A DNA stretch of 64,000 nt. It comes from Octopus sinensis (Eukaryota). A program made the translations under genes and the position numbers. The notes under the pieces are model-generated. The model saw only the letters and a program-made list of their open reading frames with translations, was not told the origin of the DNA and searched no databases. The stretch is taken from positions 27,528,001 to 27,592,000 of the forward strand of contig NC_043016.1 of assembly GCF_006345805.1 (NCBI RefSeq), read 5' to 3'. Below are positions 19,387 to 57,438 of the stretch, one piece after another (position 1 is the first letter of the stretch; each line of letters begins with the position of its first letter).

Positions 19387-19544
19387 TAACACACGCATAT
19401 ATATAACGGACTACTTCTAGTTAAAAAATTAATAATGCAGGTTGATAGTTAATATTATTACCTGGTATTTCAGGTAATATGTATTAAGTTTTTTTTTAAA
19501 TTTTAAAGTATTTGTGTGTGTGTGTGTATATATATATGTATATA

Positions 19545-19590
<46 letters not shown>

Positions 19591-19615
19591 ATATATAATA
19601 TATATATATATATAT

Positions 19616-19781
19616 CATGACTTCATAATTTGAAACTGACTTATTGGAAGTCCACCTGAAGATTGTCGATCAAGACAAGAAACGATTGTAGTGGCGGTTT
19701 TTTTGACTATTTATTAAAATTTTATGTATTGATTAAGTCTTTCCTTGTTTGTTTTGCAAAATAGTGGTTTTGTCTCTAATA

Positions 19782-19790
<9 letters not shown>
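19616..19790 (+). mobile_element. Penelope-like terminus in (TA)n
   Basis: Short unique segment between TA tracts, with a hammerhead followed by ATTAAA and a T-rich tail. Confidence 0.7.
19652..19694 (+). ncRNA. Minimal type-I hammerhead ribozyme
   Basis: CCAC CUGAAGA UUGUC-GAUCAA-GACAA GAA AC-GAUU-GU A GUGG: full core, 4 bp stem I, 5 bp stem II, GUA cleavage triplet. Confidence 0.85.
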
Positions 19791-19820
<30 letters not shown>

Positions 19821-20285: not shown

Positions 20286-20378
20286 TCTCACAAGACAGAT
20301 TCGAACCACTGACCTAAGGATAACAGACATGATTTACCATGTTACAGTCCTCTGCTCTACCAACTGAGCTATTACGAG
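20286..20378 (-). tRNA. Intron-containing tRNA-Tyr(GTA)-like gene, probably a pseudogene
   Basis: CTCGTAA TA GCTCAGTTGGTAGAGC A GAGGA CT GTA A [20 nt intron 20322-20341] A TCCTT AGGTC AGTGG TTCGAAT CTGTC TTGTGAG A; C1-G72/A73 present; T-stem mismatched. Confidence 0.8.
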
Positions 20379-26764: not shown

Positions 26765-27079
26765 TCATCATCATCATCATCATCATCGTTTAGCGTCCGC
26801 TTTCCATGCTAGCATGGGTTGGACGGTTCAACTGGGGTCTGGGAAGCCAGAAGGCTGCACCAGGCCCAGTTTGATCTGGCAATGTTTCTACTGCTGGATG
26901 CCCTTCCTAACGCCAACCACTCCATGAGTGTAGTGGGTGTTTTTTACGTGCCGCCGGCACAGGTGCCAGATGAGTCTGGCAAACGGCCCCGATCGGATGG
27001 TGCTTTTTATGTGGCACTGACACAGGGGCCAGGCGAGGCTGGCAACGGCCACGAACGGATGGTGCTTTTTACGTGCCAC
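26765..27079 (-). mobile_element. RTE LINE 3' end
   Basis: (GAT)n tail, shared 3' module and two array units. Confidence 0.8.
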
Positions 27080-29054: not shown

Positions 29055-31503
29055 CATCATCATTATCATCATCATTTAGCATCCGTTTTCCATGCTAGCA
29101 TGGGTTGGATGGTTCAACTGGGGTCTGTGAAGCCGGAAGGCTTCATCAGGCCCAGTCAGATCTGGCAGTGTTTCTACAGCTGGATGCCCTTCCTAATGCC
29201 AACCACTCCATGAGTGTAGTGGGTGCTTTTTACGTGCCACCCGCACAGGTGCCAGACAGAGCTGGCAAACAGCCACGAACAGATGGTGCTTTTATGTGCC
29301 ACCGGCACGGGGGCCAGGCGAGGCTGGCAACGGCCACAAACAGATGGTGCTTTTACGTGCCACCGGCACAGGGGCCAGGCGAGGCTGGCAACGGACACGA
29401 ACAGATGGTGCTTTTACGTGTCACCGGCATGGGGGCCAGGCGAGGCTGGCAACGGACACAAGCGGATGGTGCTTTTACATGCCACCAGCATGGGGCCAGG
29501 TGAGGCTGACAATGGACACGAACGGATGGTGCTTTTACGTGCCACCGGCACAGGGGCCAGGCGAGGCTGGCAACGGACACGAACAGATGGTGCTTTTACG
29601 TGTCACCGGCATGGGGGCCAGGCGAGGCTGGCAACGGACACAAGCGGATGGTGCTTTTACATGCCACCAGCATGGGGCCAGGTGAGGCTGACAATGGACA
29701 CGAACGGATGGTGCTTTTACGTGCCACCGGCACAGGGGTCAGGCGAGGCTGGCAACGGACACGAACGGATGGTGCTTTTACGTGCCACTGACACGGGGAC
29801 CAGGCGAGGCTGGCAGTGGACACGAACAGATGGTGCTTTTATGTGCCACCGGCACAGAGGCTAGACAGGGCAGCGCTGGCAACGACCACGATCGGATGGT
29901 TCGCTTAACCACAGCTGCAATTTCCACTGATGTTGATCGACCTCAATTTTTGTTCTGCTTTCTGATATGTGATTTGATTTGGTTTGATTTTGATTTTGAT
30001 TTTGATTTTGACTGTTCTCACTGGTCTTGCCGGGTCTTCTCATGCACAGCATACTTCTATAGGTCTCGGTCTCTAGTCATTTCCTTGGTGAGACCTAAAG
30101 TTCGAAGGTCGTGCTTCACCACCTCGTCCCAGGTTTTCCTGGGTCTACCTCTTCCACAGGTCCCCTCAACTGCCAGGGTGTGGCACTTTTTCACATACCT
30201 ATCTTCATCCATTCTCGCCACATGACCATACCAGCGCAATTGTCTCTCTTGCACACAACAACTGATGCTTCTTAGGTCCAACTTTTTTCTCAAGGTACTT
30301 ACACTCTGTCGAGTTTGAACACTGACATTACACATCCAACGGAGCATTCTAGCTTCATTTCTTGCGAGCTTAAGCAAATCCTCAGCAGTCACAGCCCAAG
30401 TTTCACTACCATGTAGCGTGGCTGTACGTACACATGCATCATACAGTCTGCCTTTTACTTTGAGCGAGAGGCCTTTTGTCACCAGCAGGGGTAAGAGCTC
30501 TCTAAACTTTGCTTAGGCTATTCTTACTCTAGCAGTTACACTTTCAGCACACCCGCCCCCGCTACTGACTTGGTCACCTAGGTAGCGGAAGCTATCAACT
30601 ACTTCTAATTTTTCTCCCTGGAATGTGGTAGAAGTTGGTCTCTGCATATTTTCAGAGTCTATTGCTCCTGAGCATCTGCCACAGATAAAAACTATTTTCC
30701 TAGTTAGTCTTCCTTTGACATTACTACATCTCTTATGTGTCCATAGCTTACATTTGGTGCATCTTATAGAGTTTCTACCTACGCCTTTTCTACAGATCGA
30801 GCAGGGCCATCTACCTGAAGGCGTTTGTGATTGGTCTACCTTCCTACTTATTAGGACTTTGGTTTTGGCTAGGTTGATTCTAAGGCTTTTTGATTCTAAA
30901 CCTTGCTTCCACACCTGAAACTTCTCCTCCAGTTCTGATAGAGACTCAGCAATTAGAGCAAGGTCATCAGCATAGAGGAGCTCCCAGGGGCAACCTGTCT
31001 TGAATTCCTCCATTATTGCCTGGAGGACTATGATAAATAGGAGGGGACTGAGGACTGAACCTTGGTGGACCCCAACCTCTACCCTGAATTCTTCACTGTA
31101 CTCGATGCCAACCCTCACCTTACTAGCAGCGTCTCTGTACATGGCTTGTACAGCTCTCACTAACCATTCATCTATCCTAGTTTCCTCATTGACCACCAGA
31201 TAAGGGATCGGGGGACCCTATCGAAGGCTTTCTCCATATCGACAAAAGCCAGGTATAGGGGCTTGTCTTTGGCTAGGTATTTCTCCTGCAGCTGTCTTAC
31301 CAGGAAAATAGCATCAGTAGTACTTTTCCCTGGCACGAATCCAAACTGCATCTGATCTAAGGTAACTCTCTCTCTAATTAGTTGGGCTATAACCCTCTCC
31401 GTAACCTTCATTACCTGATCCAGCAGCTTGATACCCCTGTAGTTATTTGTATCTAGGGCGTCACCTTTACCTTTGTAGCAGTTGACCATTATGCTGCTAC
31501 ACC
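29055..31503 (-). mobile_element. 5'-truncated RTE-clade LINE
   Basis: NYRGIKLL, FVDMEKAFDRVPR, GVHQGSVLSPLLF and YADD motifs; one frameshift and one stop; (GAT)n tail; AGAT duplicated at both junctions. Confidence 0.92.
29222..29900 (-). repeat. ~61 bp tandem array (~11 units) in the RTE 3' UTR
   Basis: GATGGT-initiated units recur at 29282, 29343, 29404, 29465, 29525, 29586, 29647, 29707, 29768, 29829 and 29895. Confidence 0.95.
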
Positions 31504-33391
31504 AGATGGTTTGCAAAATTCAGAAGTGGAGATTTCAGCCTTGAAGATGAAAATTGAACAGGACGTCCAGTTGGGTTTGATGATAAGCTCCTTGAGGCAT
31601 TAGTTGAAAAAAATCCTGCGTTATCAGTTGAAGAATTAGCAATAATGCTTAGTTCAAACCATACAACTGCTCATCGTCATCTTCAACAACTTGGAAAGGT
31701 TCCTAAACTTGAAAAATGGGTGTCTCATGAATTGTCAGAAAGCAACCGCAAATCCCGAGTTGACATCTGCTCTTCTTTCCATTCTCACCAACTCATTTCA
31801 TCCTTTTTGGATAGGCTTGTGACTGGTGAGGAAAAACGGATCTTCTATCAAAATGTTAAACATCGTAAACAGTAGCTTGGTAAAAGGGAAAAAGCTCAAC
31901 CAACACCGAGAAGGGAACTTCATGGGAAAAAGGTTCTTCTCTCTATCTGGTGGAATTGCAAAGGACTAATTCACTTTGAATTGTTACTGCCTAATGCAAC
32001 AATCAATGCTCAAGTCTACTGTCAGCAATTAGAGTGTTTGAACCAAACTTTGAAGAAAAAAAAACCTGCTTTAGTGAATCGAAAAGGAGTGATGTTTCCT
32101 CGGGACAATGTGCGACCCCACACTGCAAAGATCACATCACAGAAGATCGAAGAGCTTGGCTGGGAAAAAATTCCTCATCCACCTTATTCTCCTGACCTTG
32201 CTCCTTCAGACTACCATATATTTCGTAGTTTACAGAATCATTTGGGGGGCATAACTTTTGCAAGCCAGGAGGAGGTCGAAACTGACATTTCAGAATTCTT
32301 CGCTTTGAAACCAAAAGAGTTTTACATTGATGGGATTAAAAAGCTTGTAAATAGATGGAAGGAAGTCATAGATAATCAGGGAAAGTACATTGATGATTAA
32401 ATTTCAATTAAATATAACATTTGATCACTTGTTTTCTTTATTCAAAATTCAGACAGAACTTATGGGATGACCTGATATAATAAAAGTTTTCTATTTAAAA
32501 GCACTCTAAATCTCATATTTTGTTTATTTCTATATAAAAATATTTGTATTAATGACCAAGTAATTCATTTTTATTAGAAAAAAATTAATTGTATTTGTAT
32601 TAGTGTTTGCTAAAAAAAGCTATTTATTATTTTTTTTTTACTTGCATATATGCAGTAATTCTCATATTGCAGTATTGCACCTAAGTGTCCTCAGATGAAT
32701 TAAATGGCACAAAGTACTTCCTAACCTTCCTCTCTGGGATTATGCTGACATGTTTACAATTTTATTTCCCATTAAACTTTTATTTTATCCTCAACAGGAA
32801 CGTAAGACTTCAGTCAGGTACAAAACTTCAGAGCTGCCACCACCAACATTGGCATGATGAAAGGTAGGTCTGGAGGGTTTATAAAAATATCAGAGCAGGG
32901 GCAAGCAGATATGTTCTGGGTACATGAGGTAAGATGGGGTGGGTGTCCCTGACATTGAGAAAAACAACAGTGTGAAAATGGTACTGTGAGAGATTGCCTG
33001 AATATAGAACATATATGACAAAGAGAAGATGTATTCCATGTAGACACAACAAAGAGACCAGCTACTGATGTTGATGACTGATGATTGAAAGCACAATTAA
33101 ATATAATAAAAACAGAGAAAGCAGCTGGATCTCCAGGAACAATCACTGAAATATTGAATATAACCGGTTCTAATCTTCCATTCAAATTAGATGTCTCCAT
33201 GAATATAGCCAGGAGCGTTGTCTCAATAATTAAACAACTCTTCCTTTTGTGTGCTACATCAGGAAATAGAAAAATACATACAGCTTTGCAAATTTTTCCC
33301 AGCCACTCACTGACAACTGCCAAAATCAAACCAACTGTTCACAGCAGGGATTCTGATTTTCCAGTGGAGTTGTCTGTAAGCTAATTCTTAA

Positions 33392-35206: not shown

Positions 35207-35755
35207 ATCAAAATCAAAATCAAAATCAAAGTGAAATTCGATGACGGGCATGAGCACCATACGAGCGAGATCGTTGACAGAGCAGCTAACCGGCTTCTGT
35301 GCCAGTGGCACATAAAATGCACCATTTGAGTGTGATCATTACCAGCTTCGCCTTACTGGCACTTGTGCCCCGTGCTAGTAGGGTGCTAAGAGCACCATCC
35401 AAGCGTGATCGTTGCTAGAGCGGCTAACTGGCTTCCATACTGGTGGCATGTAGCAGGCACCATTCAAGCGGGATCGTTATCAGCATCGCCTTACTGGCTC
35501 CTGTACTGTTGGCATGTGTAAAAAGATTCGAGCGAGGTCGTTGTCAGTACCACCTGACTGGCCCCCATGCCGGTGGCACGTAAAAGCACCCACAACACTC
35601 TTGGAGTGGTTGGTGTTGGGAAGGGCATCCAGCTGTAGAAACTGTCAGATCAAGACTGGAGCTTGGTGCAGCCATCTGGTTCGCCAGCCCTCAGTCAAAC
35701 CGTCCAACCCATGCTAGCATGGAAAGCGGACATTAAACGATGATGATGATGATGA
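35207..35755 (+). mobile_element. RTE-type 3' UTR with 5 alternating array units
   Basis: (ATCAAA)n, GCACCAT... units, shared 3' module, (GAT)n tail. Confidence 0.8.
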
Positions 35756-41200: not shown

Positions 41201-41425
41201 CCTTCCAGTTGTCCTTTAAGCTATATGTCCCTTCCTCCTTGTCCTATCTATTATCAGAGGCTTCCAGTAGAATGTCTCTAAATTTCTGTTGGTTTGCTAT
41301 GTCTTTGGGCTTACATAATCTTCTTTTCTTGTGTGGTTTATTTCTCTAAGTCTCTCTAGCACTAACTCTGGAGTCACGATAAACCTGACCATGATAAACA
41401 GTCTCCTGTTGACACAGAGTCACCC

Positions 41426-42415
41426 TTGATTTCTTCCCTGGAGTCGTCCAAACCGAAGGGAACAAAATCGAAGCGGCCAAAGAAGGCGAAGGAACCGGTG
41501 GTCGTTTCTGCACATGATCGTTCCTGTGCGGATTCTTCCTCATCTGCCTTTTCGGTCCCGGAGGTTTCCCAACCTAATTTGAGGAGCGTAGACTCAAACC
41601 CTCCTGAAGACCGTTGTTCTCCCCAAAAGAAGAAACGTAGTCAAAACTCCAGAGGGGCAGATTTGGCTATGAAACCTGATCACGATAAAATCCGTTTGGA
41701 TTCTCCCTCACCTGTCCTTCCCATTAATGCCATTGCTCAACCAATTCTGAACGATCTCGATGGGAGTTCATCTGGGGAGTGGCGCTCCCCCAAACCGAAG
41801 AAGAGGCAGTGCAGTTCCAAACCAGGTGGGAAAATTATGACCACTAAACCCATTCCGATCGACCCCACAGGCCGACATAAGTCCGATGGCTATGAAACCA
41901 CCCTTTTGAAATCCTCCAATGAAGAATCGAATACCACAGCTCATAGTAGAGAACATTTTGCCCACTCAAGATCAGCAATAATTTACGGTAAAGCTGAATC
42001 CACCCGTGATACTGGCATAAACCGCCTAAAAGATGACATTAATTTTGTTTCCATTTTGGTTGGAGAATTGTTCTCTGTGAATGAAAAGGTCAGTGTCCTT
42101 AAGGTCGCTCGGCTAGGAAGATTCCAAGCGAACCCAACCGCAGATACTAGACCACGCCCAATAAGGGTAATCTTTTCTTCTGATCGGGAGGCTTCAGTCT
42201 TTCTGAACAGAGCTCAGACGCATGCCTGGGAGGACCCCAATATGGGTTTTCGCAAGGAATACTCACTAAGAGAGAGAATTCGCCGGAGAAACCTGATATC
42301 CAAACTAAAGATGAGGAAACAAATGGGAGAGAAGGGTTTACGAATCCAAGATGGACAGATAATCAAGTCCTACCTCTGGTCCCATGCTGTAGTGCTGACA
42401 GGGAAAGTGATGTGA
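41426..42415 (+). CDS. LINE ORF1 protein (true start uncertain)
   Basis: 329 codons open; IIYG..ES, RPRPIRV and ER.RRR.L...L..R...GE..L.I..G.I motifs typical of CR1-type ORF1. Confidence 0.8.
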   Translation: MISSLESSKPKGTKSKRPKKAKEPVVVSAHDRSCADSSSSAFSVPEVSQPNLRSVDSNPPEDRCSPQKKKRSQNSRGADLAMKPDHDKIRLDSPSPVLPINAIAQPILNDLDGSSSGEWRSPKPKKRQCSSKPGGKIMTTKPIPIDPTGRHKSDGYETTLLKSSNEESNTTAHSREHFAHSRSAIIYGKAESTRDTGINRLKDDINFVSILVGELFSVNEKVSVLKVARLGRFQANPTADTRPRPIRVIFSSDREASVFLNRAQTHAWEDPNMGFRKEYSLRERIRRRNLISKLKMRKQMGEKGLRIQDGQIIKSYLWSHAVVLTGKVM

Positions 42416-45300
42416 GGGCAAATCGAAGTGAAGTTGATACCCCCGTCAACGATGCTATATCTGATACCCCTTATTCTGCTTGTTCCCCAACTCCCGCCCC
42501 TCAGACTTCACAGCTCAGCATCGTCTACACCAACTCGTGCTCCTTATTCCCAAAGTTCAGTGAACTATTTACACTGGCCATACGTGACTCCCCTGATGTG
42601 ATAGCTATCACCGAGACTTGGCTGACTCCAGCAGTAAAGGACTCAGAAATCCACCTGCAGGGCTACGTCCTTTTCAGATGTGACAGAGGAAAAAGGCGAG
42701 GTGGAGGTGTTGCTGTGTATGTTAAGTCTGACCACAAACCGTCCAACGGTATTCTACCCACTAATGCTCAGCCTACAACAAAATTCGATGCCATCTATTG
42801 CAAGCTGAGCCTATCTGAGTTTTGCCTGCCCGTGTTGGCTGTCTACAGGCCGCCTCTTGCCGACCCCCAGGACGATGCACATTTACTCGAAGCGATAAGA
42901 TTTGTTTCAGCTTCGCATGACTGTTTGGTACTAGGAGACTTCAACGCTCCCACGATCGATTGGCCCGCATCAATTTGTACAACATCTTCCCGGTTCGGCC
43001 AGGCCCTTCTTGACGTGGCTGAAGATTGTTTTCTATCGCAACATGTTGAATATCCGACAAGGCATCGGTCTGGGCAGCAGCCATCTATGCTAGATCTGGT
43101 ATTCTCCCGCTATCCAAGATCAGTGTCAGACGTATCTGTGTGCGCCCCTCTTGCCAAGAGTGATCATGCAGTCCTGAAGTTCGTCATGCACACAACTTTT
43201 TCTGCACCCACGACTACTTCGCTGCCACGTAGAGTCTTCTCTGCAATTAATCTTGAAATTCTAACCGAGGCTTCCGCGCTTCTGGACTGGCGATCCCTGA
43301 TGACGTTGTCCTCAGTTGACGAACTATGGTCATCCCTCAAAGCATATGTAATCTGTTTGACTGACCAGGCAGTTCCCGTTGGGCTTCCCAAGAGGAAGAA
43401 ACACAAGCCCTGGGTGACAAAGAGGGTTAAACGAGAACGTCGACTCAGAGATATTGCTTGGGCTGAATTCAAAAATCTGGATTCGACTGCAGCTTTTGAG
43501 GTGTACAAAACACAACGAGACCGAGCCGTGAAAATCGAAAAGAAAGAACGCTTCAGTTATGAATACAAAATCGCGGCAAATGCCAGTAGCAATCCAAAAA
43601 CCTTCTTTGCCCATGTCCAGCGGAATTCCCGCTTGAACAACCAGATTGCAACGTTGGTAGACTCAACAGGCGTATCGATTGAGGACCCTTATCAACAGAG
43701 TCAATTATTTGTCGAGGCTTTTTCAACTATTTTCAAACAAGATGATGGTCGTGAACCCCCTCCATTTGATAGATCGGTACCTCCAATGCTTCGATTGGTC
43801 ATCACGCGGGACGAAGTCAAACGTGTTATTCAAGGCCTCGATGTCAACAAGTGTCACGGCCCTGACGGCATACACCCACGGGTTATCAAAGCGTTGGCTC
43901 CGGTCATCTGCGAGCCCTTAACGCGACTATTCAATATGTCATTGGCGACGGGTGTTATACCTGCAGACTGGAGAACAGCGATAATCTGCCCAATTTTCAA
44001 GAAAGGGAGCCGCGAAGACCCGCTTAACTACCGACCGGTTTCCCTTACATCAATAATCAGCTAGATGTTCGAAACCATCCTTAAGAAAAGTATGATGCTC
44101 CACCTCCTAAACACAGCCTCTATCTCTGATTCCCAACACGGCTTCATGCCGAAGAGATCATGCTTGACCAACTTACTAGTAATGGAAGAATTGGTGACGC
44201 ACATCCTCGATGATAGTGATGCAGTTGACATTGTTTTACTGGACTTTGCCAAAGCTTTTGACTCGGTAAACCACCGCCTATTACTTGTCAAGCTTCAGGC
44301 ATATAGTTTCCATCCGGATATTGTACGATGGGTTGGTGCCTTCCTCTCAGATCGCTCCTTCCAAGTCCAAGTTAATGGTTCGCGGTCCGACGTCTCCAGT
44401 GCGAGCAGTGGCATGCCTCAAGGTTCAGTGCTTGGGCCCTTGTTGTTCTTAGTCTTCATAAATGACTTGCCCAACGACCTCACGCAACACACCCTTCTAT
44501 TTGCCGATGATATCAAACTGGTCGCTCCTCGCGGTAATATAGAGGATCTTCGTCGATGCCTCCACCAAATTTGGAAGTGGTCTAACGATTGGGACCTGTG
44601 TCTGAACGTGTCAAAGTGCTGTCATCTGCCTGTCGGCTCTACTCCTGCAACTCAACTTGATTTCGAGCCGGGTCGTCTGCTGCTGGAGAGGACCGATCAG
44701 GTAAAGGACCTAGGTATCTTGGTGGATTCCTCCTTTTCGCCTTCGGCCCAGTGCGTCCATGCTGCCAACAAAGCACGCGGAATTCTGTTCTTGATTCGAC
44801 GGTCATTCGGAATGCTCACAGCAGCCATATTCCTACCACTCTATGTCATGCTGGTGAGACCCATATTGGAGTATGGGATTCAAGCCTCTTCTCCTTATCT
44901 CCTCAAAGACATACAGCATCTCGAAAGAGTCCAGAAGCTGGCTACCCGCATGGTTCATGGTCTCAAAAATTTGTCCTACGAAGAAAGGCTGAGGAAGCTC
45001 GACCTTTATTCTCTTGAAAAACGCCGCCGCCGTAGTGATCTCATTCTCGCCCACAACATCATAAGCGGAAAGTGTAACCTCTCGAAAGAGCTGTTCTTCA
45101 CTCCTGCTCCAGAGTGTCGGCTGCGGGGTCATTCCGAAAAGCTCTACCTGCGACGATTTCATCTCAATCGAAGGAGAGGAGCTTTCTCCGTCCGGGTTGC
45201 GGATCCGTGGAACAAGCTGCCAGACGAGATGGTAAAGATGCCGATGACCGCTTTGTTCAAAGCCTCCCTGGACCTCAAGTGGCCTGAACTCTTTACATGA
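42412..45300 (+). pseudogene. ORF2 AP-endonuclease/reverse transcriptase with one in-frame TAG (44062-44064)
   Basis: ITETWL, GDFN, SDH, NYRPVSLTS, LDFAKAFD, PQGSVLGP and FADD; the two ORF-track pieces share one frame. Confidence 0.92.
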
Positions 45301-51992: not shown

Positions 51993-52052
51993 TTCTACTG
52001 AAGAGGAAAAAATCTATTATGAGATTAATTCCGAAATTGATTCAATATAGAA
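51993..52052 (+). ncRNA. Type-I hammerhead ribozyme
   Basis: UUCUA CUGAAGA GGAA-[AAAAUCUAUUAUGAGAUUAA]-UUCC GAA AUUG-AUU-CAAU A UAGAA: all three stems and an intact core. Confidence 0.85.
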
Positions 52053-52203
52053 TTAACGAATTTTTTAAAAAAATTCTATTTCCTTGTTTTCAGCTCTACA
52101 TGTTTTCTGTAGTGAGTAAATAATATGTGGAAATTGACGATTTAAAAGTCTGTTATCAGCATATTGGCATAGAAATCATTTTCTTTAGCCCTTATTTATA
52201 AGT

Positions 52204-55769: not shown

Positions 55770-56605
55770 CTTTAATGTTCACTTCTCTCTGCTTGCACAG
55801 GTCAGACAGAATCTGTGGAAGCAGATTTTCTGTATTCTGATGCCCTTCCTGTTGTTAACCCTCAATTGTTCTACAGTTGGATGCCCTTCGTAAAACCAAC
55901 CACTCCAAGAGTGTGGTAGGTGCCTTTTACATGTCACTGGCACAGAAGCCAGTCAGGTAGGCATGGCATCGATCACTTTCGTATAATCCTTTTTACATAC
56001 CACCGGCACGGGAGCCAGTCAGGCAGACCTGGCATCAACCATGTTTGGATGGTGCTTTTTACATGCCACTGGCACAGGAGCCAGTCAGGAGTCACTGGCA
56101 TTGACCACGTTCAGATGGTGCTTTTATGTGCCACTGGCATGGGAGCCAGTCAGGCAGACCTGGCATTGACCACGTTTGGATGGTGCTTTTTATGTGCCAC
56201 TGGCATGGGAGCCAGTCAGGGGGCACTGGCATCAACCATGTTCGGATGGTGCATTTTACATGTAACTGGCACAGGAGCTAGTCATGGGGCACTGGCACAG
56301 CTGTGATTTTGGTTTTACTTGACCCGACAGGTCTTCTCAAGCATATCATATAACCCAATGCATTGGGGGTACTCTTAAATGGGCCGGACATGCAACACTG
56401 GCATCAGCCATGGCTGCAATCTCACTTTAGTTGCTGGATCTTCTCAATCACAGCATATCTCCAAAGGTCTCAGTCTCCTGTAATTACCTCTGTGAGGCCC
56501 AACGTTCGAAGGTCATGCATTACCACCTCATCCCAAGTCTTCCTGGGTCTACTTCTTCTACAGGTTCCTTCCACAATTAGGGTGTGGCACTTCCTCACAC
56601 AGTTG
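55770..56605 (-). mobile_element. RTE 3' end with a diverged ~66 bp array
   Basis: ORF end (TWDEVV), ~6 array units and 3' module. Confidence 0.8.
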
Positions 56606-56739: not shown

Positions 56740-57438
56740 CATCATCATCATCATTTAATGTCCGTTTTCCGCGCTAGCACGGGTTGGACGGTTCGACCGA
56801 GGTCTGGGAAGCCAGGGGCTGCACCAAGCTCCAGTCTGATCTGGCAGAGTTTCTACAGCTGGATGCCCTTCCTAACACCAACCACTCCGCGAGTGTAGTG
56901 GGTGCTTTTTATGTGCCACCGGCACAGAAGCCAGTCGGGGCAGCACTGGCATCGGCCACATTCGGATGGTGCTTTTTATGTGCCACCGGCACAGAAGCCA
57001 GTCGAGGCGGTGCTGGCAACAGCCACGTTCGGATGGTGCTTTTTATGTGCCACCGGCACAGAAGCCAGTCGGGGCAGCACTGGCATCGGCCACATTCGGA
57101 TGGTGCTTTTTATGTGCCACCGGCACAGAAGCCAGTCGAGGCGGTGCTGGCAACAGCCACGTTCGGATGGTGCTTTTTATGTGCCACCGGCACAGGCATC
57201 ACAACTACTATTTCCATTGATATTTATTTCGATGTTCATGTTCATGTTCATGTACTTGACTCAACAGGTCTCCTCAAGCACAGCGGGACGTTCTTGAATC
57301 CAGGGTACTTTGAATGGGCAGGGGTTATGCGGAGCTGGTGCAGGAAGCAGCCCGGGTCTTTGCAGTCACAGCATATCTCCAGAGATCTCGGTCCTTCGCC
57401 ATTGCCTCAGTGAAGCCCAACGCTCTGAGGTCATGCTT

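Follow-up and report, generated by a model that had tools for sequence, protein, structure and literature searches.

The genomic copies of a Penelope-like element in Octopus sinensis show an excess of arms that start just behind the predicted cut of the hammerhead motif that the element carries, and this excess is shared by both arms of head-to-head pairs. The observation is new here, in that a literature search, covering few subscription papers, returned no earlier report of Penelope copies starting behind the cut or of spliced genomic Penelope copies. We consider it likely that this Hydra-clade hammerhead cuts its own RNA, inefficiently and as a dimer, in some of the transcripts, and that the copy found in the window analyzed here (the whole 64-kb stretch of DNA) stems from a capped message that was left uncut.

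A Minimal Type I Hammerhead within a Short Stub

The motif presents the CUGANGA, GAAA, and NUH core elements in type I order, and its letters and coordinates agree with the original prediction, which had described an intact CUGAAGA/GAAA core, perfect stems I and II, and a GUA site. The motif and the stub that surrounds it are laid out as follows.

19527–19615, no strand: (TA)n tract 5′ of the stub (Tandem Repeats Finder), the likely insertion target
19619, forward: extra G before the inferred transcription start, likely a copied 5′ cap by analogy to L1
19620–19642, forward: exon 1, 23 nt, with a GTAAGT donor after it in long copies
19642–19643, forward: splice junction, where long copies hold a 1828-nt GT-AG intron (L025 5738–7565)
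19652–19694, forward: minimal type I hammerhead with a 4-bp stem I, CUGAAGA, a 5-bp stem II, GAAA, and the self-pairing ACGAUUGU
19652–55 and 19691–94, forward: stem I, CCAC/GTGG, read from the letters
19656–62, forward: core CTGAAGA, with G5 at 19658
19663–67 and 19674–78, forward: stem II, TTGTC/GACAA, with a 6-nt loop
19679–82, forward: GAAA, with G12 at 19679
19682–89, forward: stem III octamer ACGATTGT, predicted to pair between two molecules
19690, forward: A17 of the GUA site, with the cut predicted after A19690
19691–19789, forward: remaining 99 nt of the pseudo-LTR, between the cut and the "short" 3′ end
19788–19819, no strand: (TA)16 tract 3′ of the stub (Tandem Repeats Finder)

The bare core pattern is weak on its own (10 matches vs. 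4.0 expected). A strict type I descriptor, made of the core, four Watson–Crick pairs in stems I and II, and a self-pairing stem III, found two sites in the 64-kb window and none in 300 dinucleotide-shuffled windows, by which a chance origin of the motif is ruled out. Rfam gave no hammerhead at the motif, neither at the gathering threshold nor at E ≤ 10. Judged from its sequence, the motif is a genuine, small RNA motif of hammerhead type; taken singly, it is an ordinary one, of a known kind in a known clade, within a new family.

A pair other than G-C at positions 10.1–11.1 slows cleavage. Here, the first stem II pair is U-A, so that the description of the hammerhead as clean overlooked the missing G10.1–C11.1 pair, which is highly conserved according to PMC4209133. 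This pair is present in sister family D and is missing from many of the Hydra entries in file S2 of PMC8557442.

The window also holds the following features.

51993–52053, forward: another type I hammerhead candidate, unrelated to the first, with stem I TTCTA/TAGAA and CTGAAGA
1366–1397, reverse: weak hammerhead-like site, matching the loose descriptor only
41366–45300, forward: LINE with AP endonuclease and reverse transcriptase (RT)
30513–31217, reverse: RT-PHD fragment
31876–32400, forward: mariner transposase fragment
20286–20378, reverse: tRNA-like sequence (42 bits) whose anticodon loop carries a 21-nt insert
26936–27079, 29222–29861, 35392–35517, 55919–56297, and 56901–57195: arrays of related 61–67-bp G/C-rich units

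In the second candidate, stem II starts with a G-C pair and has a long loop, stem III is palindromic, the cut would fall after AUA, and a (TA)n tract follows ~150 nt later.

The Host Element Is a Young Hydra-Clade Penelope-Like Element

In the 2.7-Gb genome, 1607 copies match the 43-mer of the motif exactly (control, 0), and 750 match its ACAATTGT variant. The window copy had been singled out as the best candidate for a direct assay; it proves to be one of more than 2300 near-identical copies, with neither a partner copy nor other pieces of the element in the 64-kb window. Among the recorded runs that contain the stretch, none is labeled as RNA. Contigs from four runs, bearing four organism labels, cover the stretch, and the G-to-A stem III variant occurs in three of them, as judged from contigs only.

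The host is a young Hydra-clade Penelope-like element present in thousands of copies, and the motif sits in its pseudo-LTR. In long copies of this ~6.5-kb element, an ORF is followed by a ~1.85-kb 3′ region, the 23-nt exon 1, the 1828-nt GT-AG intron, 9 nt, and the hammerhead, past which 99 nt lead to the short end and an 84-nt tail leads to the long end, giving two fixed 3′ ends that lie 99 and 183 nt past the cut. The long end is followed after 55 nt by the next unit's ATG, so that the hammerhead lies 238 nt before this ATG. Beside the pseudo-LTR with its hammerhead, the element shows the inverted truncated copy and the one-sided tail, and its copies have (TA)n as insertion target. Its single ORF combines a telomerase-like RT with a C-terminal GIY-YIG, as in EN+ Penelope-like elements, through the linked motifs RIKWK, DKT, YRDD, CxCx5C, VYxC/YIG, CxxC, and CxH, and it bears the Hydra-type linker CTCRDKSNC along with CYLC and KCRH (KCRN in one copy). 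The protein model (pLDDT 83.8) had telomerase RT as its top six fold matches (best E 3e-9). Pfam named neither RT nor GIY-YIG in the element's proteins, with a sub-threshold GIY-YIG in one relative, and a PDB sequence search left the protein unnamed.

By these motifs, and with the published alignment compared by eye, placement in the Hydra clade fits the definition as given in PMC8557442, and the original assignment to the minimal Penelope hammerheads with a short stem III is borne out: the motif is of type I and its stem III is self-pairing. Three other assignments were excluded: Naiad, as the endonuclease is C-terminal; a non-LTR retrozyme made of tandem noncoding units, as the window copy is solo and the family is tied to an ORF; and Hydra-1_Obim itself, whose hammerhead sequence differs and whose protein is similar by eye only.

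Some copies have features of their own: an Asn-rich low-complexity insert lies between RT and endonuclease in L172 (ORF residues about 456–559), and the 3′ region of L022, L023, and L025 has internal duplications of ~1 kb and 0.4 kb, which take in further copies of exon 1 together with the donor site. A 13-bp hairpin stands in the tail of L025 (7727–7756), ~15 nt past the short 3′ end (z −2.7; 3 of 200 shuffles), and the stretch past the long 3′ end folds no better than its shuffles.

The Stub in the Window Is Spliced and Bears an Extra G

In the window, the element is represented by a solo 170-nt stub between (TA)n tracts, in which exon 1 is joined exactly to exon 2 and starts in a YYANWYY context, which we take to be initiator-like. 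Genome-wide, exact junctions amount to 752 spliced and 1185 unspliced, counts that cover one of two exon 1 variants. Sister subfamily B has the same intron and acceptor, and spliced copies of it are present. Four further spliced loci retain upstream sequence, so that splicing extends to read-through RNA.

In the window stub, exon 1 is preceded by G, and in the intron-bearing element by C. Scored by eye in the first 100 of 340 matches, obtained with a search pattern that left out starts preceded by A, a G precedes the start in 19 of 32 spliced copies versus 0 of 68 unspliced ones. Most of these G starts are ambiguous, since a 2-nt microhomology with the partner arm could supply the G; at six loci, the window included, the G cannot derive from the partner arm, four of the six having been retrieved by a search that favored the sequence of the window. 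In L1, an untemplated G of this kind is read as a copied cap in PMC9341517. The absent intron and the extra G together point to a stub that was likely copied from a capped, spliced, and uncut RNA, and if the G does stand for a cap, then the template was linear and the hammerhead within it uncut.

Self-Pairing of Stem III and Predicted Folding

Stem III had been said to lie one change from a palindrome. As RNA, ACGAUUGU already pairs with itself at 8 of 8 positions, two of them G-U (−5.8 kcal/mol), and the natural variant in which stem III is a perfect palindrome is ACAAUUGU, with 750 exact genome copies, rather than ACGAUCGU. The accompanying claim that such a stem suits dimers agrees with the predicted folding: two 43-mers co-fold into a double hammerhead (−21.4 vs. 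2 × −6.5 kcal/mol), when the 43-mer monomer is of ordinary stability (z −0.70) and is predicted to disfavor stem III (−5.4 kcal/mol with it vs. −6.2 open). In a context of 171–325 nt, predicted pairing probabilities are 0.0 for stem I and 0.03–0.31 for stem II, that is, mostly open. The transcript proposed for the assay, 19640–19710, is predicted to fold into another hairpin and to lack all three stems, whether as a monomer or as a dimer, when 19652–19694, 19646–19695, 19643–19697, and 19620–19700 are all predicted to form the three stems as dimers. This alternative predicted hairpin spans 2–12 nt behind the cut. Moreover, for published hammerheads of this type, cleavage is slow (PMC4209133) or requires the element's protein (PMC11167929), so that the absence of cleavage in a bare assay, which the original prediction would have taken as decisive, would leave the motif standing.

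Across about five sister families, stem III is palindromic in 68 of 70 matches (by eye), with three different centers: the core and GUA are kept, stem II is replaced, and stem III reads ACAATTGT, ACACGTGT, or ACAGCTGT. The sequence of stem II differs among families and, by an unscored inspection by eye, still pairs in most. Covariation was computed on 10 related rows, for which the search pattern had fixed part of both stems: 92.5% of stem I cells are paired, with a double change in two of its four pairs, and the covariation score was 0.297 versus 0.125, higher than in any of 500 shuffles, with 96% of cells pairing. The catalytic core is invariant in 10 of the 10 aligned rows, most of its letters having been fixed by the pattern, while stem II is replaced. 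Self-complementarity of stem III across the sister families supports cleavage as a dimer. CpG decay was rejected as the source of the G-to-A change in stem III, which occurs in 19 of 120 copies there versus 0 of 120 at the CpG of stem II. The predicted folding fits a weak ribozyme that would depend on dimer formation and may be assisted by protein, in line with PMC4209133 and PMC11167929.

As it stands in the window, the stub looks inert. The case implied by the original prediction, in which this copy would be a free-standing, efficient ribozyme active at its locus, could appeal to an intact sequence that is identical to another copy over 171 of 171 nt; we hold it to be very improbable, as the stub is solo, without a partner or upstream promoter sequence, and as stem III costs the monomer energy.

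Arm Starts Pile Up behind the Predicted Cut

Within ~46 nt behind the predicted cut, 1021 arms start, versus 139 in the 44 nt up to it, the two counts having different anchors and filters, with the filter letters placed on the partner arm; as raw counts, arms that start behind the cut make up about three in ten of all arms. We inspected the first 100 of the 1021 matches and 100 of the 139. In the former sample, 98 are true truncations (two were dropped), and the starts per 5 nt toward the cut number 1, 3, 7, 4, 11, 21, 22, and 29. The six letters directly behind the cut are G/C-rich and starts are rare in them: genome-wide, there are ~2.5 starts per nt at 1–5 nt behind the cut versus ~59 per nt at 7–11 nt. 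Cap ends are trimmed less, 12 of 26 losing 3 nt or fewer.

The pile is shared by the two arms of a pair. Where one arm starts behind the cut, the partner also does so at 43 of 48 loci, versus 8 of 26 for arms that start before it (Fisher p 3e-7), 22 loci of this upstream set having been dropped before counting. The first fraction becomes ~46 of 52 by a correction by eye, which takes in one misfiled locus (L248, scored as crossing the cut, with a partner that starts in the tail) and four missed partners (L249 and L280, crossing; L232 and L259, not crossing). Among loci without a detected partner, 14 of 26 start 7–13 nt behind the cut. Independent stalls do not yield such concordance within pairs, and deletion of palindromes does not yield a pile in solo arms, when a barrier in the RNA molecule yields both.

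These observations bear on a rather improbable explanation by joining or repair, whereby A/T-rich ends would join more easily and palindrome centers would be deleted after insertion, with no barrier at the RNA level. Indeed, unlike the motif, the zone behind the cut is very rich in A/T, microhomology is seen at junctions, and deletions at the center would shorten both arms together. However, in a zone that is equally A/T-rich throughout, the first 10 nt hold 4 starts and the last 10 nt hold 51, the partnerless loci, which are not palindromes, show the same pile, and unequal pairs do occur (18 of 26), so that symmetry is not forced.

Starts also fall at the exact site. Exact-cut starts total 21 matches, about 11 of them independent, and in a map of 78 truncation events, from which 16 rows with indels or internal deletions and duplicate loci were dropped, they number seven, where a position holds 1.46 events on average (Poisson p 8e-4), one of these events (L090) being ambiguous. 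Two further positions are raised in this map, with 5 and 10 events, some of the five, at position 32, being indel artefacts. Starts at 1–5 nt behind the cut are as rare as the background (nine events in five positions). In subfamily B, scored by eye, 19 of 74 arms start behind the cut, five of the 19 piling at 7 nt, and three to four events start 3–9 nt before the cut, so that subfamily B has a weak step. As this subfamily lacks the U7 run and piles at the same 7 nt, slippage on U7 was rejected as the sole cause.

The pile may reflect either a cut end trimmed to its first A/T letters or a stop of the RT at the folded motif. A reading in which the ribozyme seldom cuts in cells and the RT stops at a folded or protein-bound motif, leaving the excess behind it in both arms, seems to us unlikely, if clearly less so than joining or repair. 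The density of starts falls not at the cut itself but at the G/C block 6–7 nt behind it, close to the foot of stem I, the alternative hairpin covers 2–12 nt behind the cut, the rarity of starts at 1–5 nt, alongside cap ends that are trimmed less, speaks against a plain cut and also fits a stop, and core mutants of another element left insertion in vitro unchanged (PMC11167929). Against this stand the stems, which are short and predicted to be mostly open, a core that stays invariant in the 10 rows while stem II is replaced, even if the pattern fixed most of its letters, and the small excess at the exact cut, which would be unexpected from a stop at the stem foot. This small spike favors a cut over a stop at the folded motif.

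Proposed Mechanism and Template Strand

Among scorable head-to-head pairs, 74 of 77 join a short 3′ end to a long one, the outcome expected if the RT starts at two internal sites on two nicked strands (PMC11167929). Often the two arms of a pair are both spliced, which favors a sense template over the antisense one proposed for head-to-head Penelope copies in PMC3846280. At L284, an arm that starts 9 nt behind the cut is joined to 5′ sequence of the ORF and repeated at 320 bp, an arrangement as from a template jump or a small circle.

Under the cutting that we favor, the element's protein would nick both strands of a (TA)n tract, and reverse transcription would begin internally, at two positions that lie 99 and 183 nt behind the cut. 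The sense RNA would then be copied to whichever 5′ end exists: a cap end would give stubs like that of the window, a far-upstream end would give long copies, and a ribozyme-cut end would give stubs that lack the motif and are trimmed, when joined, as far as the first A/T-rich letters, before the two cDNAs are joined head to head. As long copies need the site intact, a slow and dimer-dependent ribozyme would suit the element. That some three in ten arms of the family were copied from hammerhead-cut RNA, with both arms of a pair made from the same cut or capped sense molecule, is a proposition on which our judgment is evenly balanced.

If this were true, a minimal Penelope hammerhead would cut in the germline and would limit, rather than make, full-length copies, and head-to-head copies would arise from spliced or unspliced sense RNA primed twice, with no antisense template. 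Whether Penelope hammerheads cut in cells, and to what purpose, is treated as an open question in PMC8557442 and PMC4209133. In this regard, a young family offers natural reverse transcripts by the thousand, with starts that fall into cap, behind-cut, and long classes; it names the exact RNA ends to look for, so that a role of the hammerhead in vivo becomes testable. Likewise, the spliced, cap-marked arms bear on the choice between sense and antisense template left open in PMC3846280.

Comparison with Known Systems

With the Hydra-clade elements of PMC8557442, the octopus element shares a C-terminal GIY-YIG and the RWK-like, DKT, CxCX5C, CxxC, and CxH motifs, as well as (TA)n targets, an inverted truncated copy, a one-sided tail, and a type I motif with a short self-pairing stem III. 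Many of the Hydra hammerheads in file S2 of that paper also have A at the cut and a first stem II pair other than G-C. The octopus element is larger, at ~6.5 kb versus <3 kb, and has an Asn-rich insert, an 84-nt tail, and a pseudo-LTR interrupted by a 1828-nt intron; the available text of PMC8557442 mentions neither an intron nor spliced copies for Hydra.

The metazoan minimal hammerheads of PMC4209133 are likewise of type I, with a stem I of 4–5 bp and no evident tertiary loop partner; a palindromic stem III region and a dimer model are common to them and to the octopus motif, and they show low activity. In D. virilis, as in the octopus element, an intron ends next to helix I (PMC4209133). 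The octopus motif differs from these hammerheads in lacking G10.1–C11.1, in a stem II of 4–5 bp versus their 7–8, and in a stem III octamer that is longer than their minimal core.

In PAc, the Poseidon element of Anolis described in PMC11167929, two internal RT start sites lie behind the hammerhead, both DNA strands are nicked and extended, and uncut RNA serves as template, as proposed here. The PAc motif overlaps the start of the ORF, whereas that of the octopus lies 238 nt before the ATG; and for PAc no RNA-seq reads ending at its cut are reported in PMC11167929, whereas octopus genomic copies pile up behind the motif.

Finally, the Penelope elements of D. virilis and A. vaga (PMC2377424, PMC3846280) share with the octopus family an initiator and an intron in the pseudo-LTR, head-to-head palindromic junctions, and Asn-rich inserts in the ORF. 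They are described in these papers as intron-keeping, whereas the octopus family has at least 752 spliced arms.
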